64,000 nt of DNA from assembly GCA_026388515.1 (NCBI GenBank), contig JAPLJO010000040.1, positions 1,825-65,824 of the forward strand, written 5' to 3'. The translations under genes were made by a program, and so were the position numbers. The notes under the pieces are model-generated. The model ran no database searches, was not told the origin of the DNA, and was given only the letters and a program-made list of their open reading frames with translations. Numbering within the stretch: the first letter of the stretch is position 1; each line of letters opens with the position of its first letter. The stretch is from Deltaproteobacteria bacterium (lineage in GTDB: Bacteria > Desulfobacterota > Syntrophia > Syntrophales > UBA2210). This document shows positions 1 to 50,859 of this stretch, piece after piece.

Positions 1-2
1 AG

Positions 3-251
3 AAGCGCATGGAGTACTATGCACGCACCACACACCTTGCGATCTCCTGTCACCATCTCCGGCATACGATGGCCACCCAGCTGCTCAATGCCGATGCAGA
101 GCTGGTGACCATCCAGGATCTCCTGGGGCATGACTCGATCAAGACGACACAGCGGTACTGTCGGGTATCAAACCTCAAAGTACAGAGAGATTACTACAAA
201 GCGATGGAGGTGATCATGCAACGAACGGCTGGCACCCCGAATAATCCTTGA
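3..251 (+). CDS. Tyrosine recombinase / phage-type integrase, C-terminal catalytic fragment (5' part outside the window)
   Basis: The frame is open from nt 3. The translation ...SCHHLRHTMATQLLNADAELVTIQDLLGHDSIKTTQRYCRV carries the HxxR ... LLGH ... Y block typical of XerC/D-integrase C-termini. Confidence 0.8.
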   Translation, partial: KRMEYYARTTHLAISCHHLRHTMATQLLNADAELVTIQDLLGHDSIKTTQRYCRVSNLKVQRDYYKAMEVIMQRTAGTPNNP

Positions 252-375
252 CGAAGAAGAGAAACTATGAGAATGTAAACACAACATAACATCCTAATAT
301 CAATAGGAAAAACAGAATATGTTACGTATAGAAAGCTGTAATCTTATACAGATTGATTTATACCGTGGTATCTCA

Positions 376-434
376 TATTCTTCCACCACAAGGGGGCAAT
401 ACCACTTGAGGCTCATTTCACTCTGAGAATTGAC
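376..434. repeat. Copy A of a short dispersed repeat (core AGGGGGCAATACCAC ... TTGAGGCTCATTTCACTCTGAGAATTG)
   Basis: By-eye alignment to 7141-7222 gives about 80 percent identity in two blocks. Copy A lacks a 20-nt segment present in copy B. Confidence 0.6.
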
Positions 435-454
435 GCCTTCGTAAAAAGTCGATT

Positions 455-590
455 ATGCCCTGTTTTGTCATTCCGTGCTTGACACGGAATCCAGCGTTTC
501 ACTGGTTCCCGGTTTTCACCGGGACGACGTCTGGACTCCTGCTTTCGCAGGAGTGACGTTCTGGGGCTTTTTGCGAGTTCGTCAGAATTA
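455..590. repeat. Intergenic hairpin-array element (three consecutive short stem-loops)
   Basis: Stem-loops: ATTCCGTG-cttga-CACGGAAT (470-490), TCCCGGT-tttc-ACCGGGA (507-524), ACTCCTGC-tttc-GCAGGAGT (535-554). One frame reads VIPCLTRNP...WTPAFAGVT, the signature I recognise from hairpin-repeat elements often mis-annotated as hypothetical proteins in anaerobic proteobacterial and Nitrospirae-type genomes. Confidence 0.55.
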
Positions 591-687
591 ACTTATAAAG
601 TTTCCTGCCCACAATCCTACGGAATAGTCCCCACATTGCTTCCCTGAGATTTTCTTATCTTCATTACAATAGAAGTTCTTTTACCTC

Positions 688-716
688 TTCATTCCTATGT
701 AATGAGGGGCATTGCA
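688..716. repeat. Possible third, partial copy of the dispersed repeat core (GAGGGGCATTGCA)
   Basis: An 11-nt exact match GGGGCATTGCA to copy B (7164-7174) plus weak flanking similarity. It lies 15-25 nt upstream of the 731 start codon. Confidence 0.35.
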
Positions 717-730
717 TCAGGAGGTCAGAT

Positions 731-1162
731 ATGAATAACTTCACTGATAATTTCTGGAAGAAGTTCTTCGTCCTTGCTTCCCTCTGGAACATCTCTGCCG
801 CACCGCTGTGTCTGATATTATACATCTACTTTCCATCCCTTATTTATACATCCGAAGGGCTCCAATACACGCACAATCCTGTCTTTGACAGTTTCTATTA
901 TATTGTAGTTGGCGCTGTCTTATTATTCGGTGTCGGCTACTACATGCCGTCCCGTGACCTTATGCTGAACCGTGGGATCATCTGGCTCGGTGCCATCGCC
1001 AAGATAGGCTTGGCGGTTGTCATATTTCAAATGTACTTCTTAAAGTATCTCACACTGCTTGTTCCCATTCTTCTCGTGGGGGACATAATCTGGGCTCTGT
1101 TTTTCTTCGTCTTTCTCAACCAGACAAAAGACAGGGTAAAGGTTAACAACTTGGTAGGATAA
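731..1162 (+). CDS. Hypothetical small integral membrane protein (about 4 TM segments)
   Basis: AGGAGG sits 7 nt upstream of the ATG. The 143-aa product has four hydrophobic stretches. No family recognised. Confidence 0.6.
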   Translation: MNNFTDNFWKKFFVLASLWNISAAPLCLILYIYFPSLIYTSEGLQYTHNPVFDSFYYIVVGAVLLFGVGYYMPSRDLMLNRGIIWLGAIAKIGLAVVIFQMYFLKYLTLLVPILLVGDIIWALFFFVFLNQTKDRVKVNNLVG

Positions 1163-1231
1163 TAAAGGTTAATAGCTTGTAGGATAAGCTGGGTTTAATT
1201 CAGAACTGTCTTTTTGTGGGGATCTCAAACA

Positions 1232-4200
1232 ATGCAATGCCCAACCTGCAAAACAAAAAACCCTACAAAGAAGAAGTTCTGCGGGAAATGTGGCGCAAAG
1301 TTAGTTGCGCTCTGTCCCAACTGCCAAGCAGAGAATCCACCGGATGATAAATTCTGTGGTGACTGCGGTTACGATTTAAGCGTACCCGCTACTAAGGTCC
1401 CACAACCTCCTAAAGAAGAAACTCACCCTACTATTTTAATCACCGATCACGAACGTAAATACGTCACTGTCCTCTTCTCCGACCTCTCCGGCTACACCGC
1501 CATGACTGAGAAACTTGATCCGGAAGAAGTCAAAGAAATCATGGGCAGAATCTTTGGGGAGATTGCCCAGGTGGTGGTCAAATACGAGGGCTTTATTGAA
1601 AAGTTCGTGGGCGATGCCATCCTGGCCTTGTTTGGAGTTCCCAAAACCCACGAGGATGATCCTGTCAGAGCAATACGCGCTGCCCGTGAAATTCATGAAC
1701 TCGTAAGGAGAATGAGTCCTCCCCTTGAAAAGAGAATTGGAAGATCTCTCTATATGCACACCGGTATCAACACTGGCCTTGTAGTGACAGGTGAACTGAA
1801 TCTCGAAAAAGGGACTCACGGCGTTTTGGGAGATACAATCAACATGGCTTCCAGATTATCTGGTCTTGCCAAGACCGACGAAATAATCGTAGGTCTTGAA
1901 ACCCATCATCAGGCGGAGGGGTATTTTAATTTTGAAACAATTGAACCCGCCAAGGTAAAAGGTAAGGAAGAGGATATCCTGACTTATAAAGTCCTCTCCC
2001 CCAAGGAAGCTCCCACCAAAACTCATCGTTTATCAGGCGTCCGTGCGGAACTGATTGGCCGCCGTGTCGAAATGCGACAACTGAAAGAGGCTGTTGATAA
2101 TCTCAAGCAGGGCAGATCATCCATTTTCTCAATCGTGGGAGATCCTGGAACCGGGAAAAGCCGCCTTGTGGAAGAGTTCAGGAACAGTTTAGATCTTGCT
2201 GCCACCCAGTGGAGAGAAGGCCATGCCTACGCCTATTCACAGAACATACCGTACTTCCCCCTTATAGATTTACTTAATCGTGCCTGGCAGATCAAGGAAG
2301 GAGATCCTCCGGAACAGGTCAGGCAGAAGGTGGAGAAGGGAACTAAAGCCCTCATAGCTGACCGGGAAGAGCTGGTTCCTTACATGGGCAGTCTCTATTC
2401 TCTTCCCTATCCTGAAACTGAACAGGTAGGCCCTGAAACCTGGAAGGCACGGCTCCATGAAGCCATGCAGCTTATTGTCACCAACCTCTGCAAGAGAGCG
2501 CCTACGATTGTGTGTATCGAGGACCTTCATTGGGCAGATCCTTCATCCATTGAACTTCTGAAAAACATACTTACAGACCTCAAATTCCCTGTTCTTTTTA
2601 TCTGCATCTACCGTCCGTCCTTCAGCCTCTTCACCAGCCACCTGATAAGCAGTTTACGAACTTACCAAGAGATCAGACTCCAAGATCTTTCCTCCTCAGA
2701 GTCCCAGGATATGGTGGAATCACTGCTGAAGACTAAAGACATCCCCGCTGATTTAAGGAAGTTCATCCAGGACAAGGTGGAAGGCAATCCCTTTTATCTG
2801 GAAGAAGCCATCAACGCCCTTATTGAGTCAGATGTCCTGGTGCAGGAAGAGAATATATGGAAACTCACCAAACCGATAACCGAAGCTAATATACCCTATA
2901 CGGTACAAGGTATTATATCTGCCAGACTTGATCGATTGGAAAGAGAAACCAAGCGTATTCTCCAGGAAGCTTCGGTTATTGGTAGATCATTTTTGTATGA
3001 CATACTCAGAAGAATCACTGAATTGAAAGAACACGTTGACAGAAGTCTTAACGGACTGGAGAGGTTGGACCTTATCCGCACAAGAACCTTACAGCCTGAC
3101 CTGGAATATATCTTCAAACACGCCTTAACCCAGGAGGTAGTCTACAACGGGATATTGAGAAAAGAGCGTCAGCACATTCATGAAAAGATAGCTCAGGTGA
3201 TGGAGGAATTGTTTCATGACCGGCTGCCCGAATTCTATGAGACTTTGGCCTACCACTTCAGGCAGGGCCGTTCCATTATAAAGGCAGTGGATTACCTGAT
3301 GAAGGCTGCCGAGAAGAGTTTCAGTAGATATGCCGTTGATGAAGCACATGAGTACTATCGGGAAGCCTTTGACCTCCTTACCAGCAAGTCAGATAAATCT
3401 AAGGAAGAGAATAAACTTCTTGTCGATCTCCTCCTCGACTGGGCAGTGGTCTATTATCATCGGGGAATTTACAATGAACTGTTAGATTTATTTCAGAAAC
3501 ATAAAAATTTGGCCATATCTCTGGAGGATAATGCCAGACTGGGGATGTTTTATAATTGGATGGGCGGGGCATTAAACAGATTGGAGAGACTCCGGGAATC
3601 CTATCAATATTTGTCTAAAGCTCTTGAGATTGGAAAAGAGCTGGGGGATGAAAAAATAACCGGCTATGCATATGGTTGGCTCATCTATACCTGTGCTGAT
3701 CTCGGACGATTGGACGAAGCTGTTGAGTTTGGAGAGAAGGTAAAAGCATTGGACGTCTATAAGTCTGACAAGGAGCTTTTTAGACTATCAACAGTCGCAA
3801 TGGGAGGAACATACTTTTTCAGAGGAGAGGGAAGGAAAGCCCATGAAGAAGGGGATGTCCTTATGGAGTATGGTCAGAAGCACTCCGAAGGAGCATGCAT
3901 TACACAGGGCCACGAGACGCATGGAAATGGCTATATGGCAATCGGGGATATTCCCAACGCTATAGAGTGCTACAAGAGGACAATCCAAACTGCATTAGAA
4001 CCTGTATTTGCCATCACTGCAAAAGTATTTCTTGGATATGCCTATGTTGTCAATGGCCAGTATGCGGAGGCTGAAACTGTGCTGAATGAAGTAACAGAAC
4101 TTTGTGAACACCAAGGTTATGGTTTCATGGGAAGTGCCGCTAAGGCCTCATCAGGTATTGTCATGATCACCAAGGGGAATTTCGAGCAGGGGATTGAGGT

Positions 4201-4600
4201 CGTGAAAGATGTGATGAAAAGTTATATCAACAATGAGAGTTGGTGGAGATATGCCTTAGTGAATTCAATGCTCGGTAGGGTCTATCTGCAAATCTACCAG
4301 GCATTCGGGAATATGAATGATTTTTCATCCATGGGACAAAGTGCAGAGTTTCTTGTGAAGACCGCTCCTGTTGCTCATGAGAAGGCGGAGGTATATTTAA
4401 CGACGGCCATTAAGAAAGCAAAGGAAATTGGAGCAAGCAGTATTCACGGACAATCGTGTCTGGAAATGGGACGGTTGCATAAGCTGCGAGGGAAAACTGA
4501 CGATGCCAGAAAATACATCGCCGATGCAATCCACATCTTGGAGGAGTGTGAGGCTGATGTCTTCCTGAAGCAGGCCAAGGAGGAACTGGCTTCCCTTTGA
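1232..4600 (+). CDS. Double zinc-ribbon / class III adenylate-guanylate cyclase domain / AAA (STAND-type) NTPase / TPR multidomain protein
   Basis: N-terminal zinc ribbons: CPTC..CGKCG and CPNC..CGDCG. Cyclase motifs: VLFSDLSGYT, KFVGDAILALFG, GDTINMASRL. Walker A is GDPGTGKS and Walker B-like is CIEDLHWAD. A long TPR-like helical tail follows. I chose the ATG at 1232 rather than the track's TTG at 1214. Confidence 0.85.
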   Translation: MQCPTCKTKNPTKKKFCGKCGAKLVALCPNCQAENPPDDKFCGDCGYDLSVPATKVPQPPKEETHPTILITDHERKYVTVLFSDLSGYTAMTEKLDPEEVKEIMGRIFGEIAQVVVKYEGFIEKFVGDAILALFGVPKTHEDDPVRAIRAAREIHELVRRMSPPLEKRIGRSLYMHTGINTGLVVTGELNLEKGTHGVLGDTINMASRLSGLAKTDEIIVGLETHHQAEGYFNFETIEPAKVKGKEEDILTYKVLSPKEAPTKTHRLSGVRAELIGRRVEMRQLKEAVDNLKQGRSSIFSIVGDPGTGKSRLVEEFRNSLDLAATQWREGHAYAYSQNIPYFPLIDLLNRAWQIKEGDPPEQVRQKVEKGTKALIADREELVPYMGSLYSLPYPETEQVGPETWKARLHEAMQLIVTNLCKRAPTIVCIEDLHWADPSSIELLKNILTDLKFPVLFICIYRPSFSLFTSHLISSLRTYQEIRLQDLSSSESQDMVESLLKTKDIPADLRKFIQDKVEGNPFYLEEAINALIESDVLVQEENIWKLTKPITEANIPYTVQGIISARLDRLERETKRILQEASVIGRSFLYDILRRITELKEHVDRSLNGLERLDLIRTRTLQPDLEYIFKHALTQEVVYNGILRKERQHIHEKIAQVMEELFHDRLPEFYETLAYHFRQGRSIIKAVDYLMKAAEKSFSRYAVDEAHEYYREAFDLLTSKSDKSKEENKLLVDLLLDWAVVYYHRGIYNELLDLFQKHKNLAISLEDNARLGMFYNWMGGALNRLERLRESYQYLSKALEIGKELGDEKITGYAYGWLIYTCADLGRLDEAVEFGEKVKALDVYKSDKELFRLSTVAMGGTYFFRGEGRKAHEEGDVLMEYGQKHSEGACITQGHETHGNGYMAIGDIPNAIECYKRTIQTALEPVFAITAKVFLGYAYVVNGQYAEAETVLNEVTELCEHQGYGFMGSAAKASSGIVMITKGNFEQGIEVVKDVMKSYINNESWWRYALVNSMLGRVYLQIYQAFGNMNDFSSMGQSAEFLVKTAPVAHEKAEVYLTTAIKKAKEIGASSIHGQSCLEMGRLHKLRGKTDDARKYIADAIHILEECEADVFLKQAKEELASL

Positions 4601-4791
4601 TTAATGGTTGAATGCATGCATTTTGGAGAGAATAGCCGGCCCAACGATTAAAGGAAATTATCGTCTTGTTTTTCGTGGAAAAATAATCCTGTCAATTTAA
4701 GTGAAATAATGGCGGTATTCTCAGTCCTAATGTGATACGTGCACTCGTACTGGATTGGGAGAAAAATAATTATGTGGAGAAAGGGACCCTG

Positions 4792-6144
4792 ATGAAGCCG
4801 CATCATCTCAAGGTGTTTTTAATAATCGCGATAGTGCTCTTTCAATCTCAAATTTTTTCACCCAGGAATGTGTATGCCTGGACGGAGCAGCCTCTCATTT
4901 CATATCGGATACTTCAAGTAATCCCGGAAGTGCGCAATGCAGAGCCGGTAGTTGTGGAAGACCTCGATTCATTTCTTATAGCCGAAGAAAAGAACCTTGC
5001 AGATTTGCTCGCACAAGAGGAAAAATGGGCGCGGCAGAATCTTTCATACTACAAGCCCCTGCCTGATGTGCTGGCATTCCAGCCAACCGGCTACCGCAGT
5101 GACGTACGGCAACGCTTCTGTCACGCCATCAGAGTCAATCCCGACTTTTACTTCAGCTTGTATCTTCAGTTGGTGCCGGGTGAAGATGCCGGCGGCAGGA
5201 CCGCCATTACGCCGAGGGAAATCACGTTTCTCAAAGACACCTCGGACTGGAAAAATACGAAATTTGCAGAACTGATTGCAGGGGAATCAGTATCTTCCCT
5301 TGATGTGGTAGTGACAGCAACTGAAGAACCGGATTTTGGCCTGGACGTGGGGCTGTATGAAGATAACGGCACTGATTTCGGAAAAGTGTATGGATTCGGC
5401 ACACAACCATTCGGGAATCCGAACCTCGAGTATGGCACCCAGGCACCTTTCCACATGGGGTACTACCATGAAGCGGGCATCATCAACACCTTTGCTGAAT
5501 TCATAACGCAGACATACCCTGAATACCGCATACATCTCTATCAGAGTCTCTCACGCTTTGCGTTTGAGACCGGACATAACTACTGGGGGTGGCGTTTCAT
5601 GGGTATGGGCCTTCAATACGTCATAGATTTAAACCAGCCCTATCATGTGAGTCTGTTGCCCGGCGTCAGTGTTGTAAAGATGATCTGGATGAGTATGCTT
5701 GATATGGTAGGAATCAGCGGTCCTAAAGCCGATGCTATTCAGCTTGTCTCAAACAGACACACGGCACTGGAAAAATTCCAGCAACTCATTCTTTATCGCG
5801 CGTATCAGGACGAAGTCAACGACAGTCCCATATTCGTGGTGCTGCGTACTATAGGGGAATGCCCACCATGGAATGATAGGATGCCACGTGATGTCATTAC
5901 AGTAGAGAGCTGTGCGCGTGCCAGGGAAACAGACAGGCTTCTTGAGGAGACAATGCCGGAGCGCTTCGTATCCGATCCAAGCTTCGAACTCGGCACCAGT
6001 CCCGAAAGAGACGATATAATTTTGAGGATACAGGAAAAGGGTGGACAGCAAGCAATCGACCGACTGACTGCTCAGGTGCGGGATCTCCTTAAACCGCTTC
6101 CCTCGTATACGTGTTCATATGTCAGAAGTATCAGGAATAAATAG
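4792..6144 (+). CDS. Secreted protein with zinc-dependent phospholipase C / S1-P1 nuclease-fold-like motifs (tentative)
   Basis: The signal peptide MKPHHLKVFLIIAIVLFQSQIFSPRNVYA|WTEQ would expose an N-terminal Trp, as in mature Bacillus PLC. MGLQYVIDLNQPYH resembles LSLHYLGDVNQPMH. RHTALEKF resembles HSKYENF (H-x3-E). Some ligand positions are not conserved. Confidence 0.5.
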   Translation: MKPHHLKVFLIIAIVLFQSQIFSPRNVYAWTEQPLISYRILQVIPEVRNAEPVVVEDLDSFLIAEEKNLADLLAQEEKWARQNLSYYKPLPDVLAFQPTGYRSDVRQRFCHAIRVNPDFYFSLYLQLVPGEDAGGRTAITPREITFLKDTSDWKNTKFAELIAGESVSSLDVVVTATEEPDFGLDVGLYEDNGTDFGKVYGFGTQPFGNPNLEYGTQAPFHMGYYHEAGIINTFAEFITQTYPEYRIHLYQSLSRFAFETGHNYWGWRFMGMGLQYVIDLNQPYHVSLLPGVSVVKMIWMSMLDMVGISGPKADAIQLVSNRHTALEKFQQLILYRAYQDEVNDSPIFVVLRTIGECPPWNDRMPRDVITVESCARARETDRLLEETMPERFVSDPSFELGTSPERDDIILRIQEKGGQQAIDRLTAQVRDLLKPLPSYTCSYVRSIRNK

Positions 6145-6171
6145 CCTACACTATTGATAGTGCGACTTTAC

Positions 6172-6933
6172 TTACATTCCCATCATGGAGCGAATCTCAG
6201 CATACTGCAGGTTGTACACCTGCAGGTAGTTGCCGGCGATCCATTGATTTTCAGCCTCCCAGTAATCATTTCGGTATCCCCCCTGCTGCACCTTGTTGGC
6301 CGCAAGGGTCAACATAATGGCCTGATCCTTCTGCCGTGCGGTGAATTTAACAGGAACACCCGCCCAGTCGATGATATTATCAAGAAGCGCTCCGCTGCTG
6401 GCGTACTGGTATGGTTCATAATACATGCGTTCCTTATCGGTGTAGGTACGTATCGTTTTCTTATCGTACTTGTCCACAATAGTGATGGAACGATAGGGAC
6501 GATAAGCAACCGCAAACAAGGTATATCCTTCCCCCTTCGCACCCTTGGCAGTATCGATGCTTGTCAATATGTAGTCCCAGGAATTAGGAATATCGGAAGC
6601 TTTCAGTATCCTCTGGAAGCTCTGAGTCGCCTGCTCCATTGTAGTAAATGCCTGGCCCGTATCGCCATCAGGAGAAACAACGTAGAAATTCTGGTTGTAT
6701 GCCGCACGATAGGTATCCGCTATGGTAATGGGTTTTCCGGCGATGAGCAGTTGTTTGTTGATTTCCTGTAATCCCGTGTCCGCTTCGACAAAGTAAGTTA
6801 ATGCCGCCATACCTTGTCCGAACCCCACCGCCATCTGTGTCCCTGTCATAGTACCCATTGAAGCAACGTTAAGCGGACAGGCATACAGACATATTGCCAG
6901 TAACAGTGAGAAAATCAGATATATTTTCTTCAT
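6172..6933 (-). CDS. Hypothetical secreted protein / possible lipoprotein
   Basis: N-terminal signal MKKIYLIFSLLLAICLYAC with a possible lipobox (LYAC). The composition is protein-like and the opposite-strand ORF looks spurious. No family recognised. Confidence 0.65.
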   Translation of the reverse strand: MKKIYLIFSLLLAICLYACPLNVASMGTMTGTQMAVGFGQGMAALTYFVEADTGLQEINKQLLIAGKPITIADTYRAAYNQNFYVVSPDGDTGQAFTTMEQATQSFQRILKASDIPNSWDYILTSIDTAKGAKGEGYTLFAVAYRPYRSITIVDKYDKKTIRTYTDKERMYYEPYQYASSGALLDNIIDWAGVPVKFTARQKDQAIMLTLAANKVQQGGYRNDYWEAENQWIAGNYLQVYNLQYAEIRSMMGM

Positions 6934-7140
6934 AATGTCACCCCACGTCTTTTGTTGTTAAAGATGAAACCCGAACAGGTAAAACGTGTACTGACCTCAA
7001 GAAAGCCACATTATAGAAAGAAATAGAAGAGGAGGTTTGAATAGTATGGTTTATTGTAACACAAGAACGGTAGAATTCAAGGATATTAACCGTTTTCTTT
7101 TCTTCCATTCATTAAATACATATTGACTTTCCTCCTGCAT

Positions 7141-7222
7141 ATTTCTTATTCTACCTCCGCAAGGGGGCATTGCAACTTGTCGAAATTTCCTCATATTGAG
7201 GTTCATTTCGTCCAGAATTGTA
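7141..7222. repeat. Copy B of the dispersed repeat (core AAGGGGGCATTGCAAC ... TTGAGGTTCATTTCGTCCAGAATTG)
   Basis: Aligned by eye with 376-434. It lies about 190 nt upstream of the patatin gene start and inside a 68-codon minus-strand ORF (7051-7257). Confidence 0.6.
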
Positions 7223-7405
7223 TAATATCCAAAAACTCCATCCGATATTCGATTCATACATTGCCTCCCAGACAGTTTATATATCCAATCACTGTGAAGA
7301 CGTTTTCATCTGGGATGGTATACTTCGATAGATTTGAAATGACTTCATGAGTCACAGGCGTCTCTTCTTTTCCGATTTTGTCGTCAATCAGGAGATAGAA
7401 TCTCT

Positions 7406-9613
7406 ATGATTATAGCGAATCAAAATGAAATTGCCCGCTTGCTATCAACAATATTTCCCCCGGATTCTTCGGAGAAATTTGCCGAGTCATTATTGGGCGA
7501 AATAGCTCCTCATGCAGAAAAGATGAATCTTCGTGAAAGAGACATTCTCATCCGTCAGGGTGATTCGAGTTTTTCAATTTATTATGTGATGAATGGGCGC
7601 TTTCATGTAATGACAGAACAGCCTGACGGAAGTACAACAGTAGTGGCAGAAATTGGACCGGGGGAACCAATCGGTGAGATACAGGCGCTGACAGGGGGCG
7701 TCCATACCGCGAATGTTCAAGCTGCCACTGATTCCACGGTAATCAAGCTGTCACAAAGAGCTGTTGAAATCATTATGGAGAAGGCGCCTGAGACTGTACA
7801 CCGACTATTGAAAACTGCCCGCATGCGCCTTCTGCGCAGCCAGTTGGCAATTTTGCTGCCCTCACTATTCGATTCACTCGATGACGAAGCGCTCCGGGAT
7901 ATACAGGGTAAGGTTCAATGGCATCATCTGCGCAGTGGGGAGATGCTTTTCCGCGAAGGCGACCCAGGCGACAGACTCTATATCGTAATACTCGGGCGCC
8001 TGCGGGTAACTCTCGAGGATAGCAAAGGAGAAAAAATAATAAATGAGGTGGCACGGGGAGAGATTATCGGTGAAATGGCGCTTTTCTCGTCCGAGCCGCG
8101 TTCCGCAACGGTGTATGCCGTGCGCGATTGTGACCTTGTCAGTATCTCACAGCCGGCGTTTGATGAGATTATAAAAAAATATCCCCAGGTGATGAGGACG
8201 ATAACCAAAGTACTCATCAACCGGCTTGCGAGGAGGAATCGTGAGGTGCCGAGTAAAGGCAGTGTCACAAATATTACGGTCATTCCCGCGAGCTACAATG
8301 CACCTGTCCATGAGTTTTCCGTCAGATTGTCAAAGGCACTCTCACTCCACGGCAAAGTTCTTCATATAACCGGCAGACTTGTCTGTGATAAATTCGGCAC
8401 TTCCCTGCTTCGAGATCCAGTGCCAAAGGAAACGTTGCAGGTAAAACTCGCGGCGTGGCTGGATGAGCAGGAGACAAAATATCCTTTCATCATTTACGAA
8501 GCCGACCCATCTTTATCACCGTGGACGCTGTGTTGTCTAAGCCAGGCGGATCAGATTCTGGCACTGGCACAAGCTTCGGACACGCCCGGATATGGTCCTG
8601 TGGCTTCATCGGTGCTTCCTTCGGTCACTCGCGCAACATGTTCAATGGTGATCCTCCATCCAGAGAGCGAAACGCTCCCATCCAATACCGGTGAATGGTT
8701 GAGGTCCTGGAATGCCGTGGACCATCAGCATGTCCACTGGGACATTACTTCTGATATCGAGCGCGTAGCACGTTACATTACGAACACATCAATGGGCCTT
8801 GTCCTTAGTGGTGGCGGGGCGCGGGGATTTGCTCACATCGGTGTGATTCGCGCCCTTAGAGAAGGAGGTATCCCTATTGATATGATCGGCGGAACGAGTA
8901 TGGGTGCTGTGATTGCAAGCGCCTATGCCTTGGGATGGGACGATCAGAAAATATATGATGAGACAAAAAACATTTTTTTTATAAATAATCCACTCAGTGA
9001 TTACACGTTTCCAATCGTATCTTTTTTCCGATGCCGCAATCTTGATAGAGTGCTTGAAAATAGTTACGGCGATACCTGCATAGAAGATCTCTGGATACGC
9101 TACTTCTGCATATCAACCAATCTCTCAATCGCCGAGATTGAAATACATGATCGTGGTTCATTGTGGAAGGCCGTACGCGCAAGCATCTCATACCCCGGTA
9201 TTGCCGTCCCTGTGGTGAAAGGCAACCATTTGTTGATTGACGGTGGTGTACTCAATAACCTTCCTATTGATATCATGAAAAAGCGCTGCAGGGGATCGGT
9301 TATTGCAGTAGATGTGAGCATCGAAGAAGACCTTACCGTAAATTATCCGGAAGTTCCCTCACCATGGAGAATGCTCTGGGACCGCGTTTCTCCGGTTAAG
9401 AAATACAGTAAATTTCCCAACATTCTGGATATTCTCACACGAACGGCAGAATTAAGCTGCATCAACAGGAAACAACAAACAATAGTGGACGCTGACTTAT
9501 ATCTGCGCCCTCCGGTTGATAATTTCAAGCTCCTGGATTTTAAATCGTTCGATAAGCTCGTTGATATCGGCTACGCCTACGCAAAAGAGGAAATAAAGAA
9601 GTGGGATAATTAA
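7406..9613 (+). CDS. Patatin-like phospholipase with two N-terminal cyclic-nucleotide-binding domains (NTE/PNPLA6-like architecture)
   Basis: CNB cassettes: GEPIGEIQALTGGVHTANVQA and GEIIGEMALFSSEPRSATVYA. Patatin motifs: SGGGARGFAHIGV (oxyanion), GTSMGA (GxSxG) and IDGGVLNNLP (catalytic Asp). AGGAGA RBS is present. Confidence 0.9.
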   Translation: MIIANQNEIARLLSTIFPPDSSEKFAESLLGEIAPHAEKMNLRERDILIRQGDSSFSIYYVMNGRFHVMTEQPDGSTTVVAEIGPGEPIGEIQALTGGVHTANVQAATDSTVIKLSQRAVEIIMEKAPETVHRLLKTARMRLLRSQLAILLPSLFDSLDDEALRDIQGKVQWHHLRSGEMLFREGDPGDRLYIVILGRLRVTLEDSKGEKIINEVARGEIIGEMALFSSEPRSATVYAVRDCDLVSISQPAFDEIIKKYPQVMRTITKVLINRLARRNREVPSKGSVTNITVIPASYNAPVHEFSVRLSKALSLHGKVLHITGRLVCDKFGTSLLRDPVPKETLQVKLAAWLDEQETKYPFIIYEADPSLSPWTLCCLSQADQILALAQASDTPGYGPVASSVLPSVTRATCSMVILHPESETLPSNTGEWLRSWNAVDHQHVHWDITSDIERVARYITNTSMGLVLSGGGARGFAHIGVIRALREGGIPIDMIGGTSMGAVIASAYALGWDDQKIYDETKNIFFINNPLSDYTFPIVSFFRCRNLDRVLENSYGDTCIEDLWIRYFCISTNLSIAEIEIHDRGSLWKAVRASISYPGIAVPVVKGNHLLIDGGVLNNLPIDIMKKRCRGSVIAVDVSIEEDLTVNYPEVPSPWRMLWDRVSPVKKYSKFPNILDILTRTAELSCINRKQQTIVDADLYLRPPVDNFKLLDFKSFDKLVDIGYAYAKEEIKKWDN

Positions 9614-9717
9614 ATGCAGGACACCGTAAAATACTGAATTGATAGAAGTGACATGAGCACGCAGTAGGTCATCCTGAAAATTCTTCTTATTTTGAATCAC
9701 GTCAGGAGATATTGAAA

Positions 9718-10359
9718 ATGCATCATGATGCAGACGCACGGTATGGGACGATTCCGGTGAAAGACAAGGTAGAATTTCTCACGGGCGTGTACGACAGGAT
9801 GACTGCGCTCAACACCAATGCCGATACCAAGGCGGGTGTCATGCTTACCTTCCACAGTATCTGGGCCATCTGCTTCGGCCCGAACGTTACGAAATTGATT
9901 ATCCAGCTTCCCGCACCACCGCTCAAAATGACTCTGTGGGTGGTGTCGTTTCTGTTAACTTGTGCCCTGTTTATCGCATTCATCCGTTCAGCATATTAGG
10001 CTGTCCTGATACTCCTGCCCAGGATTGATGCTCAAAAAGGTGAGGAACCAGCGAAACGGAGCCTCGTCTTTTTTGTCGATGTTGTTAAAATAGCAGGGAC
10101 CAATGTCGCCGAGAAATCAGCAAATTACAAAAAGCAGCTTGACAGAACAAGCTATGAGGACCTTGTCGATGACCTTGTGTATCGAATCAACGATATCGCC
10201 AATGTAGTGAATCAGAAATATGAGTGCACGAAAAAGGCAATAAAGCTCTCGCTATACACGTTTCTCCTGTGGGCAATCTCTCTTTTCTCAGTGATTATTA
10301 TGAACATGTTCTGGAGTGGGGGATACATTCATGCAATGCCCGAAATGCCAATTCGATAA
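9718..10359 (+). pseudogene. DUF5706/PycTM-like (Pycsar-effector-type) multi-TM protein interrupted by a single in-frame TAG at 9997-9999
   Basis: Track ORFs 9712-9999 and 10177-10359 are in the same frame, and the 177 nt between them has no other stop. The joined product has NADTKAGVML, ..LLPRID..SLVFFVDVV.. and DLVYRINDIANVVNQKYECTKKA, which match my recollection of the DUF5706/PycTM pattern. Confidence 0.55.
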
Positions 10360-10414
10360 TCCTGATGGACTTAACTTCTGCGGTCAATGTGGTTGCCAGT
10401 TAGAACAAACATGA
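10331..10414 (+). pseudogene. 27-codon zinc-ribbon stub, likely the truncated N-terminus of a larger zinc-ribbon protein
   Basis: MQCPKCQFDNPDGLNFCGQCGCQLEQT* parallels the cyclase N-terminus MQCPTCKTKNPTKKKFCGKCGAKL. It stops after one ribbon and overlaps the upstream gene end by 29 nt. Confidence 0.35.
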
Positions 10415-10534
10415 GTTGATACCGAAATTCAGTAAATGGTTAGTGAATTTATAAATAGTTAATAGGGAATGTCTTCGCGAAGGATGAGAAGAAACAGGAC
10501 AATACCCTTGTAAAGCCCGCGTCGGTTGGGGTTC

Positions 10535-10963
10535 TTACATGTGGTAGAGTTCGCTGCCGAGAATTCGAATCCAGTTGTTCTTCAGTACTTTCAGTGCCTG
10601 TTCCACAGGCTCCACGCCCAGAATCAGCACGGTGATTTCACCGGTCCCGATGCAGGGATATATGTAATCAACATTGATAGTGGCTTTCTTGAGCGGTTTG
10701 AGTACGGCGTTCAGTCCGCCGGGATGGTGCGGTACCACGCAGGCAATGACATCTTTTACATCAATGGCGTATCCCGCGGTCTTCATCACGTTGATTGCTT
10801 TTTCAGGGTCATTGGCGACAAAGTGCAGCTTTCCTTCTTTGCCCTGTGCGGTGAAGTAAAACGCGATGATATTAATCCCGTTGGTCCCTAAAAGGTCGCT
10901 GACACTCGACAGTGTACCGGGTTCGTTTTTCAGGGAATGGTCAATCTGTTTGACGGTTTTCAT
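10535..10963 (-). CDS. ACT-domain (small-molecule-binding) protein, tandem ACT
   Basis: Two repeats of the ACT-like pattern (LKNEPGTLSSVSDLLGTNGINI.. and PHHPGGLNAVLKPLKKATINV..). AAGGAG RBS is present. It is last in the oxidoreductase operon. Confidence 0.7.
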   Translation of the reverse strand: MKTVKQIDHSLKNEPGTLSSVSDLLGTNGINIIAFYFTAQGKEGKLHFVANDPEKAINVMKTAGYAIDVKDVIACVVPHHPGGLNAVLKPLKKATINVDYIYPCIGTGEITVLILGVEPVEQALKVLKNNWIRILGSELYHM

Positions 10964-10965
10964 CT

Positions 10966-11514
10966 TTACGCTCCTTTAATCACAAGCTCGGCACCGAGAG
11001 TGAGGCTCTTTTCGTTGATGGCCATTATGTCGGATTTTTTGCCTTTGAAAATTTCATGAAGAGCCTTCACGATTGATTCAATTGATGTCATTTTGGTGGC
11101 GGCGATAAATCCTCCGAGCATGATGATGTTGACGGAACGGTCATCGTTGAAATGTTTCTTCGCCAGTTCGTTCGCCGGTACACGATATACGGTGATGTCA
11201 TCGCGCGATGTTTTACGGTCGACGAGACTGGAGTTCAGCACAATCAGCCCACCTCTCGTGAGGGCACTCTCAAATTTGATAAGCGAGGGATTGTTCAATA
11301 TGACCGCATGGTCGGGGGACGATGCGACGGGCGAGAAGATTTCTTCATCGGAAACGGCGATCGTGCAGTTCGCGGTACCTCCCCGCATTTCCGCGCCGTA
11401 TGACGGAAGATAGGTCACTTCCTTGCCTTCCCTCATCGCCGCCACGGCGTACAGGTACCCCATCATGAGTACACCCTGGCCACCGAATCCTGCGAAGACG
11501 GTTTTTTTCAACAT
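10966..11514 (-). CDS. 2-oxoacid:ferredoxin oxidoreductase, gamma subunit
   Basis: FAGFGGQGVLMMG..LPSYGAEMRGG is typical of POR/KOR gamma subunits. The operon order delta-alpha-beta-gamma resembles OorDABC/KorDABG. Confidence 0.85.
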   Translation of the reverse strand: MLKKTVFAGFGGQGVLMMGYLYAVAAMREGKEVTYLPSYGAEMRGGTANCTIAVSDEEIFSPVASSPDHAVILNNPSLIKFESALTRGGLIVLNSSLVDRKTSRDDITVYRVPANELAKKHFNDDRSVNIIMLGGFIAATKMTSIESIVKALHEIFKGKKSDIMAINEKSLTLGAELVIKGA

Positions 11515-49309: not shown

Positions 49310-49792
49310 ATGTTTAAAGTAGGAGATATGGCAGTGTATCCGTCTCACGGAGTGGGGATAATAGAAGCCATCGAGAACAGGGAAATACTGGGGTGTAAGC
49401 AGTATTTTTATGTAATGAAGATACTCGGCAATAATGCAACTATCATGATTCCCCGTGATGGTGCCGTGTCCGTAGGTTTACGTGAGATCATATCCGAAGA
49501 TGAAATACCGAGAATATACGAAATACTCCGCGAAAAAGGAGTGATAATCGACAAACAGACATGGAACAAGCGATATAAAGAATACTGGGAAAAAATTAAA
49601 ACGGGATCGGTCTATGAAATTGCGAAAGTATTGAGAGATTTATTGACTCTTAAACTCGATAAGGACCTGTCCTTCGGGGAACGAAAGATGATGGATACGG
49701 CAAAAAATCTGCTTGTGAAGGAGATATCCATCGCAACGAATTGTGAAGAAGAAGATGTTGAACGTGATTTGAACGCGATTTTCAGCAATTGA
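49310..49792 (+). CDS. carD: CarD-family transcriptional regulator
   Basis: The MFKVGDMAVYPSHGVGIIEAIE N-terminus is characteristic of CarD/CdnL. Confidence 0.85.
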   Translation: MFKVGDMAVYPSHGVGIIEAIENREILGCKQYFYVMKILGNNATIMIPRDGAVSVGLREIISEDEIPRIYEILREKGVIIDKQTWNKRYKEYWEKIKTGSVYEIAKVLRDLLTLKLDKDLSFGERKMMDTAKNLLVKEISIATNCEEEDVERDLNAIFSN

Positions 49793-49854
49793 TTGTACTG
49801 CGGAAACGTTCTTTGAAAATTTTTCATTTTATCCTACACGATGGAGGGGGCAAT

Positions 49855-50859
49855 ATGTTTCAATTTGTACTACGATTATTTCTTATTATTGTCTGTTCGC
49901 TGAGTGGATATTTTATATTTAATAGGTTGTGGAGCTTCCCAATATCATTGCTGGGTTTGATATCAGGCATCATTCTCTCATTGCTTACAATTGAACTCGA
50001 AAAATCGATACGCAAACTGTCTCTCAGAACCATAACAGGTGGAACGGTAGGATTATTGTTTGGTATTTTTATATCGTTCCTATTTGTGTATGGCCTGAGG
50101 TATATTCCGCAGTGGGACAAATCAAGCTCAATTCCGTGGGAATATGTTTATATACTCATCACCTGTGTTCTCGGGTATCTTGGTCTGCTGCTAGGTTCCA
50201 TGAAGGTCGGGGAACAGGGCTTTTCGATTGCAACGCCGGCTGAGGAAGATGAATGCATTAATGCCAGAATACTGGATACCAGCGTAATAATCGATGGGCG
50301 TTTGGCAGACATATGCGATACAGGATTCATTGATGGAACGCTCATTGTTCCACGATTCGTACTTGAGGAACTGCAGCAGATTGCAGATTCATCCGATCAC
50401 CTGAAGCGCTCCCGGGGTCGGCGTGGCCTCGAAGTACTCAATAAGATGCAGAAAAGTCCCGGGATAAAAATTGATATCGTAGATGTTGATTTTCCGAAGG
50501 TGAAAGGAGTCGATGCAAAACTCGTTCAGTTGGCAAAAGCGAAAAACGGCAGAATCGTCACAAATGACTATAACCTCAATAGAATCGCCGAATTGCAGGG
50601 GATAAAAATTCTTAATGTGAACGAACTGGCCAATGCCTTGAAGCCGGTGGTGCTGCCTGGTGAAACAATGGTGGTTAAAGTTATTAAGGAGGGAAAGGAA
50701 CAGGGTCAGGGTGTTGCGTACCTTGATGACGGGACAATGGTAGTGGTGGATAATGCCAGTAAGTATCAGGGACAGACCGTGCAGGTTGTGGTAACCAGTG
50801 TTCTTCAGACAACTGCAGGTCGAATGATTTTCTCAGACTTAAAGCATGTCGTTCCTTGA
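49855..50859 (+). CDS. Membrane-anchored PIN/TRAM-domain protein (YacL-like)
   Basis: N-terminal TM segments, PIN motif ILDTSVIIDGR and a C-terminal TRAM-like beta domain. The position between carD and ispD matches Bacillus yacL. Confidence 0.8.
   Translation: MFQFVLRLFLIIVCSLSGYFIFNRLWSFPISLLGLISGIILSLLTIELEKSIRKLSLRTITGGTVGLLFGIFISFLFVYGLRYIPQWDKSSSIPWEYVYILITCVLGYLGLLLGSMKVGEQGFSIATPAEEDECINARILDTSVIIDGRLADICDTGFIDGTLIVPRFVLEELQQIADSSDHLKRSRGRRGLEVLNKMQKSPGIKIDIVDVDFPKVKGVDAKLVQLAKAKNGRIVTNDYNLNRIAELQGIKILNVNELANALKPVVLPGETMVVKVIKEGKEQGQGVAYLDDGTMVVVDNASKYQGQTVQVVVTSVLQTTAGRMIFSDLKHVVP

Follow-up and report, generated by a model that had tools for sequence, protein, structure and literature searches.

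Neighbouring cyclase, patatin-lipase and PycTM genes in a Syntrophales genome: probably a decayed mosaic rather than a single defence system

Do a nucleotide cyclase, a cyclic-nucleotide-binding lipase and a PycTM-like membrane protein encoded within a few kilobases of one another form a single signalling or defence system? The question is raised by a stretch of 64,000 nucleotides from a Deltaproteobacteria bacterium of the order Syntrophales (the window; contig JAPLJO010000040.1, positions 1,825 to 65,824). An earlier note had described its first 10.5 kb as an integrase-flanked block holding a relay, in which a STAND/TPR-gated class III cyclase makes a cyclic nucleotide monophosphate (cNMP) that opens a cNMP-gated patatin phospholipase. 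We analyzed the block, its proteins (identical to the NCBI entries MCX5851158-MCX5851165, locus tags NT072_) and the surroundings of their relatives. The reading that we lean towards is that the block is a mosaic, partly decayed cNMP-signalling stretch next to an integrase and a probable old island, being neither one system nor a new three-way system. In related loci, we found a cassette of a STAND-fused cyclase and a PycTM protein, of which the window holds the remains alone.

The domain make-up that the earlier note had given for the cyclase and the lipase was borne out, as was its caution that both families are widespread. The cyclase, whose sequence is identical to NCBI protein P0121, combines in one chain a double DZR zinc ribbon (residues 9-52), a Guanylate_cyc domain (81-259, 2.5e-20), an AAA_16 NTPase (279-463, 1.6e-22) and repeats recognised by TPR_12 and other TPR models of Pfam. 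Its catalytic set is intact, with the metal-binding Asp residues, the Asn/Arg residues, a Walker A motif (GDPGTGKS) and a Walker B motif (CIEDLHW); D84, D128, N204, R208, GxxGxGKS and EDLH are invariant in 19 aligned homologues. Column conservation across the 19 homologues was 0.81-0.88 in the cyclase, NTPase and helical parts and 0.49-0.66 in the TPR part, the pattern that would be expected of a conserved output joined to a diversifying sensor. The family has more than 4700 homologues, hundreds of which are 55-65% identical to the window protein across the full ~1115 residues.

The nearest solved cyclase domain is that of Synechocystis Cya2 (2W01, 3.5e-27). At the purine-specifying position, where Cya2 has a guanine-specifying Glu, the window cyclase has a Lys (IEKFVGDA). 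Under the rules for class III cyclases a Lys at this position points to an adenylate-type enzyme, and the product of the window cyclase is probably cAMP, judged from this residue. The best PDB matches of the protein were adenylate and guanylate cyclases, not PycC, and its matches to the PADLOC PycC models were weak (4e-14, 50 bits). We rejected an identity as the TOMM kinase/cyclase equivalog, for which the score was 270 bits against a cut-off of 705.75.

The lipase is also intact. Pfam recognised two cNMP_binding domains (7.6e-44), a Patatin domain (1.2e-33) and, between the two parts, an NTE_Ploop domain (5.6e-34) that was absent from the earlier description. All of these scores are far above the cut-offs, and the protein has the complete set of features of a neuropathy-target-esterase (NTE)-family lipase with cyclic-nucleotide-binding (CNB) domains: CNB domains, an NTE P-loop-like domain and a patatin domain with GGGxRG, GxSxG and DGG. 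The catalytic motifs read GGGARG, GTSMG and DGG in the window and are invariant across 21 aligned family members. The second CNB domain (CNB-B) carries the canonical phosphate-binding cassette GEMALFSSEPRSATV, which argues that the protein is probably a cNMP-regulated (lyso)phospholipase; the first (CNB-A) has a His replacing the Arg, a family-wide feature. The nearest solved patatin is PlpD (5FQU). More than 4000 homologues share the architecture, many of them named 'NTE family protein/lysophospholipid hydrolase' by JGI, and we found no study of bacterial CNB-NTE-patatins in the literature searched.

The third gene of the proposed module is decayed. It belongs to the PycTM family (Pfam PF18967, 31.2 bits against a cut-off of 27.2; PADLOC PycTM, 5e-21 across the whole model) and is interrupted by the one in-frame TAG that the earlier note had reported, which lies at 9997-9999. 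The extent of the decay was seen by comparison with a sibling contig (L163) that has 96-97% nucleotide identity to the window. The sibling carries, in order, the patatin gene, two intact PycTM copies (A and B), the same stub as the window and the ACT operon. Copy B has CAG (Gln) in place of the TAG, and the TGA with which the family ends in L163 has become TGG at 10312-10314 of the window, so that the end of the open reading frame (ORF) at 10359 is an artefact. In a three-way DNA alignment with both copies, the window gene matched copy A at its 5' end and copy B in its body, with a crossover near 9825-9835; as judged from this alignment, the chimera is the outcome of an unequal recombination that removed one tandem copy. 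Read-through or recoding of the TAG was rejected, since TAG ends 11 of the 49 long ORFs here and the sibling has CAG.

Just past the ancestral PycTM stop is the 27-codon zinc-ribbon stub that had been likened to the N-terminus of the cyclase, a likeness that we confirmed. The stub resembles the N-terminus of a PycTM-linked cyclase on contig L168, which belongs to a second cyclase subfamily ('type-2', as opposed to the 'type-1' window cyclase). By tblastn, the stub is 71% identical to this protein over 24 aa, versus 54% for the window's own cyclase, and it shares KCQF-NPDGLNFC with L168. The better match to the type-2 N-terminus argues that the stub is the relic of a second, L168-like STAND cyclase, likely the partner of the PycTM protein and lost before the two strains diverged. 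No further cyclase remnant was found between the stub and the ACT gene. The window thus holds a member of the Pycsar effector family in a gene that is not intact (TAG, lost stop); the stub adjoins it, and the intact cyclase lies 5.1 kb off in another transcription unit.

Taken together, the block holds three separate cNMP-related pieces. The first is an intact putative sensor-synthase in which, by analogy with STAND proteins, binding of a ligand to the TPR and nucleotide-dependent oligomerisation of the NTPase would bring the cyclase domains together and turn synthesis on. The second is an intact NTE-family lipase, in which CNB-B might bind a purine cNMP and regulate lipid hydrolysis; the cyclase may feed it through a diffusible cNMP pool. 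The third is the wreck of a Pycsar-like cassette, comprising the chimeric PycTM gene with its nonsense and stop-loss changes and the 27-codon cyclase stub. Where a strain keeps PycTM intact, disruption of the membrane could be triggered by this cyclase or a sister enzyme.

The relay proposed for this locus depends on whether the cyclase and the lipase belong together. In the window they are 2.8 kb apart and in different transcription units, separated, as the earlier note had stated, by two other genes, one of them on the minus strand. The earlier note had proposed that orthologues of the two genes be tested for co-occurrence within a few genes of each other. On the cyclase side, we surveyed the closest relatives (52-65% identity) at 80 metagenome loci and two others, with 476 kb of flanking DNA, by tblastn and a family hidden Markov model, and recovered neither a patatin domain nor a PycTM at any of the 82 loci. 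The commonest neighbour of the type-1 cyclases was another cyclase paralogue (19 loci by tblastn; 26 within 5 kb by clustering), followed by PAS sensor proteins and, in four loci, a small protein with transmembrane (TM) helices and a CNB domain. The nearest homologue of the window cyclase (65% identity) sits among genes of fatty-acid and aromatic metabolism.

On the patatin side, we surveyed 80 species-representative genome loci with 1.13 Mb of flanking DNA. Six class III cyclase genes were found within 10 kb of a patatin gene, at 6/80 loci, and two of them were directly adjacent to it. In a Bellilinea metagenome-assembled genome (MAG) of the Chloroflexota (L006, 6268-15949), a gene for a 1222-aa cyclase-AAA_16-TPR protein is followed after a 7-nt gap by a CNB-NTE-patatin gene, on which genes for CNB-SpoIIE(PP2C) and BTAD-AAA_16 proteins converge, placing two CNB-gated enzymes in a compact cNMP neighbourhood. 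In an Acidobacteriaceae MAG (L010), the patatin gene is followed after 348 nt by an FHA-cyclase gene. The patatin P0013 (49% identity) is surrounded on a metagenome contig (L175, 1-22232) by five cyclase-AAA_16 genes, of which one carries a TIR fusion; the region also encodes a MalT/BTAD STAND protein and the toxin-antitoxin pair ParE/RHH, and looks like a defence island. Other relatives are found in different company: P0016 (46% identity) neighbours DnaK, GrpE and three HSP20 genes on six independent contigs, and P0005 (51% identity) is followed by metabolic genes. The absence of patatin at the 82 cyclase loci and the mixed contexts of the patatins argue that the cyclase and the lipase are not a conserved two-gene system; rather than being co-inherited as a module, the pairing has arisen more than once, once as an operon. 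Of the relay, what stands is its plausibility in single lineages (the operon in L006 and the cluster in L175); a conserved linkage is not supported.

Several observations nevertheless weigh against reading the block as a mosaic. The patatin gene ends 104 nt upstream of what was a bona fide Pycsar-type effector gene and lies 2.8 kb downstream of the cyclase, and this layout is kept in the sibling L163. STAND-cyclase and CNB-patatin genes have also come to lie close together, independently, in two or more further lineages, in one of them as an operon, and a moderate enrichment of cyclases around patatin genes may exist. The sibling, at 96-97% identity, is too close for a presence/absence comparison of the block.

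A rival reading is a dedicated defence relay, in which the STAND/TPR-gated cyclase senses infection and its cNMP opens the CNB-patatin (and an intact PycTM), so that membrane damage kills the cell. The cyclase, CNB-patatin and PycTM genes lie within 9 kb, on one strand and beside an integrase; variation within the cyclase family is concentrated in the TPR, a pattern also known from immune receptors; and the arrangements in L006 and L175 fit the same idea. A 40-nt motif is also common to the upstream regions of the two units. Its two copies form a direct repeat of 80% identity, are the only two in the 64 kb and had no counterpart in shuffled sequences; by our own estimate, the chance expectation of such a shared motif is ~1e-4. 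The motif hints at co-regulation of the cyclase and patatin-PycTM units and may be an operator or promoter element. We rejected a sigma-54 promoter by inspection, as the spacing from GG to TTG is one base too long, and an RNA element, as no stable fold was obtained. We nonetheless regard a dedicated relay as unlikely. No patatin occurs at any of the close cyclase loci and most patatin loci are without cyclases; two unrelated genes, one on the opposite strand, split the pair; and the patatin family, with its thousands of members, has a uniform architecture and often housekeeping contexts. No PADLOC system matched; the patatin aligned with PycTIR models in their CNB parts and, weakly, with CBASS lipases, and the PycTM gene, which is the sole unambiguous defence-type gene, is inactivated here.

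At the other extreme, an ordinary signalling cyclase and a housekeeping NTE-like lysophospholipase might be neighbours by pure coincidence, with PycTM and the stub as junk of an old mobile element. Each family is very large and is usually found without the other, type-1 cyclases occur among metabolic genes, relatives of the patatin lie beside chaperone genes, and the intervening genes are unlinked to either family. On the other hand, a CNB-gated enzyme needs a source of cNMP, and the 64-kb window offers no cyclase-family gene besides the one 2.8 kb from the patatin; the independent recurrences in L006, L010 and L175 and the shared upstream motif also speak against chance, and we doubt this account as well. 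The mosaic reading retains the two intact proteins as possible partners through a common cNMP pool and treats the PycTM gene and the stub as remains of a Pycsar-like cassette.

What these remains derive from could be seen in the relatives of the PycTM protein, a family uniformly 198 aa long. We sampled five PycTM clusters on contigs of readable length, and in 4/5 a cyclase-AAA_16-TPR gene was immediately upstream on the same strand, which bears out the analogy with Pycsar drawn in the earlier note. Among the relatives, L164-L174 and L182 show this arrangement, with 12 nt between the two genes. In cluster P0276 (HGW-Deltaproteobacteria-2 and others) the upstream gene encodes a TIR-cyclase-STAND protein of 1206 aa that is 55% identical to the window cyclase, and RlmL and DUF4126 genes are downstream. 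Clusters P0253 and P0251 each have a zinc-ribbon-cyclase-STAND gene upstream (1123 aa and 1121 aa, both with a 12-nt gap), followed downstream of PycTM by an acyltransferase gene and an OEP gene, respectively. In cluster P0252, the upstream cyclase is of the P0253 type (63% identical to that of P0253) and a ferredoxin gene is downstream. The flanking genes differ at each of the four clusters; therefore, cyclase and PycTM move together as a cassette. Type-2 is the subfamily of the P0253 and P0252 cyclases, whose identity to the window cyclase is 34% and 28%, respectively, and both proteins checked (L168 from P0253 and L182 from P0252) have a guanylate-type Glu at the specificity position. The L168 cyclase reached 4.8e-22 on a PADLOC PycC model. 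A confident structure model of the PycTM family (pLDDT 86) was a bundle of long helices, for which Foldseek gave no match in the PDB at E<=0.001, and no relatives of the 198-aa PycTM were found in the IMG/VR viral contigs. Searches of the literature by term returned no description of a STAND-cyclase/PycTM cassette in the portions of text retrieved.

We regard the STAND-fused-cyclase/PycTM cassette as the new element of this analysis, a Pycsar-type variant that occurs in related loci. It is possible, although we put it forward tentatively, that the STAND/TPR-fused class III cyclases, with their zinc ribbon or TIR domain, both sense infection and synthesise the signal in a Pycsar-like family that is as yet undescribed. 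The 198-aa PycTM would be the usual effector, with a CNB-NTE-patatin also or instead in L006, L175 and perhaps the window, where the locus would be decaying with one cyclase and the patatin surviving. How Pycsar cyclases are activated upon infection was left open by the authors of the Pycsar study, in the excerpts of PMC11224242. If the proposal is true, it would supply a concrete receptor for how Pycsar-type cyclases get switched on, and a cyclase fused to a STAND NTPase and TPR and coupled to PycTM is a testable candidate for such a receptor-synthase. The bacterial CNB-NTE-patatins are very numerous, and their operonic linkage to a cyclase in at least one lineage offers a handle on what they respond to. 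The window itself calls for caution: three neighbouring cNMP-related genes are here not a conserved system, and the sole clear defence-type gene is dead.

Three further observations concern the cyclase families. About 3 kb upstream of the TIR-cyclase-STAND and PycTM genes, L164 has a host gene (1693-2532) that matches Anti-Pycsar_Apyc1 / Lactamase_B_2 of Pfam and is also present in L165 and L166; its product might be a regulator that degrades cNMPs, or its position might be coincidental. Tandem cyclase-STAND genes, with a type-1 gene directly followed by a type-2 gene, are common (L084, L093, L097, L110, L120, L145 and others among L083-L162). The type-2 (L168-like) tandem partners are ~30-35% identical to type-1, and type-2 often follows type-1 without a PycTM; such tandems may indicate hetero-oligomeric or dual-signal sensors. 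In L120 (3441-4064), and also in L085, L086 and L123, type-1 cyclases adjoin proteins of ~140-210 aa that begin with TM helices and end in a cNMP-binding domain; these proteins are possible membrane cNMP receptors.

The features of the block and its boundaries are collected in Table 1. The block consists of two plus-strand units with a minus-strand gene between them. The integrase C-terminus noted at the start of the window was confirmed (Pfam Phage_integrase, 7.2e-13, profile positions 125-169 of 172), with partial matches to XerC/XerD-like models of NCBIfam and to integrase families of PHROGs, which were the only PHROGs matches among the block proteins. The description of the block as integrase-flanked holds on one side only, and the integrase is itself cut by the window edge. 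An integron reading of this XerC/integron-integrase-like fragment was rejected, as the fragment is oriented towards the genes and the repeat search gave nothing resembling attC. Beyond 10.5 kb, core metabolism begins on the minus strand, as had been described, with an ACT / 2-oxoacid:ferredoxin oxidoreductase operon, and the core genes continue with a glycyl-radical enzyme, tig, lon, ligA, fusA and acyl-CoA carboxylase; a protein with PIN and TRAM domains (49789-50859) is encoded inside this otherwise core region. The GC content of the block (0.44-0.49) is lower than that of the next 15 kb (0.49-0.55) and the same as in stretches of core genes (ligA, fusA) at 40-56 kb. Core genes elsewhere in the window are thus equally AT-rich, so we rejected GC content as evidence for an island, in line with the earlier remark that the block is not compositionally distinct. 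Rfam gave no match in 1-11000, and scans for promoters and terminators stayed at background level.

A hint of an island came from the right-hand junction of the sibling. Between the stub and the ACT gene, L163 (2579-2606) contains a sequence resembling the 3' end of a tRNA-Pro (T-arm, acceptor stem and CCA; GGGTTCAAATCCTGCCGCCCCGACCA), with 23/26 matches to the tRNA-Pro(GGG) of the window. The stub/ACT junction is otherwise the same in both, and the fragment is absent from the homologous place in the window (~10440-10470). The fragment is probably an old attachment-site repeat, and its orientation fits a tRNA-integrated element that used the integrase at the left edge of the window. These features suggest that the block may be an old tRNA-integrated island.

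Table 1. Positions of the features discussed, in window coordinates
Feature	Position	Strand	Remarks
Tyrosine recombinase C-terminus (82 residues), XerC/D- or phage-integrase-like	3..251	+	cut by window edge
40-nt motif, copy 1, core CAAGGGGGCA..ACTTG	369..408	+	320 nt upstream of the orf731-cyclase unit
Four-TM protein, MCX5851158.1	731..1162	+	143 aa; 69 nt upstream of cyclase
Zinc ribbon / class III nucleotide cyclase / AAA_16 (STAND-like) NTPase / TPR protein, type-1 subfamily, intact	1232..4600	+	1122 aa; Pfam
Secreted protein, distant Zn-phospholipase C/P1-nuclease-like candidate	4792..6144	+	450 aa at NCBI start; alternative GTG at 4732
Lipoprotein-like ORF	6172..6933	-	253 aa; splits cyclase unit from patatin unit
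40-nt motif, copy 2	7140..7179	+	227 nt upstream of patatin start
CNB-CNB-NTE_Ploop-patatin, bacterial NTE-family lipase, intact	7406..9613	+	735 aa; Pfam
PycTM-type effector pseudogene	9718..10359	+	Pfam, PADLOC; TAG, stop loss and chimera
27-codon zinc-ribbon stub, MQCPKCQFDNPDGLNFCGQCGCQLEQT and stop	10331..10414	+	16 nt past ancestral PycTM stop; GGGGGA Shine-Dalgarno
ACT-domain gene, first of the core 2-oxoacid:ferredoxin oxidoreductase operon; right-hand block boundary	10535..10963	-	Pfam ACT_8/ACT, POR adjoining

The remaining genes of the block were of less help in assigning a function. The four-TM protein upstream of the cyclase had no match in Pfam, NCBIfam, PADLOC or PHROGs. A homologue of 27% identity is encoded on an unrelated metagenome contig (L093, 13388-13780), 40 nt downstream of a type-1 cyclase, and the protein may be a weakly conserved accessory membrane protein. 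The secreted protein encoded downstream of the cyclase belongs to a family of at least 576 representatives (E<=1e-3), none of the 40 members that we scanned having a Pfam match. Its N-terminus bears a signal peptide with a conserved Trp behind it, and its invariant or near-invariant residues are W30, H33, D181, H221, H262, H275-x3-D279-x5-H285 and H323-x3-E327. The ten best PDB matches of the family profile were all Zn phospholipases C, with marginal E-values of 0.004-0.06; from these matches and residues, the product is probably a distant, secreted Zn-dependent phospholipase C / P1-nuclease-like enzyme. The lipoprotein-like ORF on the minus strand had no family match in Pfam, NCBIfam, PADLOC or PHROGs, its cluster members came from near-identical strains alone, and a single-sequence AlphaFold2 model was unusable (pLDDT 34). 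Relatives of the latter two genes were not present at any cyclase or patatin locus examined, and we treated both genes as unrelated cargo.

The earlier note had suggested that the locus combines elements of CBASS, Pycsar and Avs in a new type of system. Such a three-way combination is probably not what the locus holds; the parts are best read as a mosaic of known cNMP-signalling components, with no CBASS component and no Avs family member by profile. Type I CBASS, which pairs a CD-NTase with CapV, uses a nucleotide-activated patatin phospholipase as a membrane-damaging effector (excerpts of PMC12480259), and a nucleotide-activated patatin is the functional analogy with the window lipase. The window lipase would sense its ligand through CNB domains and not by the CapV mechanism; it scored 32.6 bits on the NCBIfam CBASS_lipase model, whose cut-off is 200, and 1e-10 on PADLOC phospholipase effector models, and no block protein matched a CD-NTase of PADLOC. 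With Avs/AVAST proteins, the cyclase shares an N-terminal output, a central STAND-like NTPase and a more variable C-terminal TPR sensor; its output, however, would be a signalling cyclase and not a direct toxin. The sole Avs profile to match was Avs1b (5.5e-4, 15.3 bits), over 74 residues (461-534).

The fusion of a class III cyclase to an NTPase module is also seen in STAND-type class III cyclases such as mycobacterial Rv0386. Proteins of the Rv0386 type end in a LuxR helix-turn-helix rather than in TPR alone. Cyclases have been described as signal-generating outputs of regulated NTPase systems (excerpts of PMC7159879). The passages on cNMP cyclases in those excerpts differ from the present case in that they concern vWA-MoxR/VMAP systems and a two-gene caspase system, and the word 'patatin' does not occur in the excerpted text. 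The lipase resembles NTE/PNPLA6/Swiss-cheese in the order CNB-CNB-NTE_Ploop-patatin and in all catalytic motifs. It differs in being bacterial and predicted to be soluble, with two CNB domains instead of three and no N-terminal TM anchor; for Drosophila Swiss-cheese, the CNB sites were reported to be necessary for catalysis (PMC12710771).

Among the closest known systems is Pycsar, defined by a PycC cyclase and a PycTM or PycTIR effector (excerpts of PMC11224242). The window gene belongs to the same effector family (PF18967 and the full PADLOC model), its relatives directly follow a class III cyclase, and the L168-type cyclase scores 4.8e-22 on a PADLOC PycC model. A Pycsar cyclase falls in the PycC clades and yields cCMP or cUMP, with abortive infection as the mode of phage protection. 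The differences are that the partner cyclases are ~1120-1200 aa long and fused to a zinc ribbon or TIR, AAA_16 and TPR, whereas the PADLOC PycC models span 226-486 positions; that the specificity residues look like the purine type (Lys in type-1, Glu in type-2), with adenylate and guanylate cyclases as nearest structures; and that what the window keeps is a pseudogene for the effector and a stub for its partner. Pucsar is an offshoot of Pycsar in which a cyclase makes cGMP and the effectors are TIR or TM proteins, and the excerpted text of the preprint contains the terms 'STAND NTPase' and 'TPR' (bioRxiv 10.64898/2026.08.12.744502). As far as those excerpts go, the likeness lies in the activation of TM or TIR effectors by a purine cNMP, to which the guanylate-type Glu of the type-2 PycTM-linked cyclases described here would correspond.

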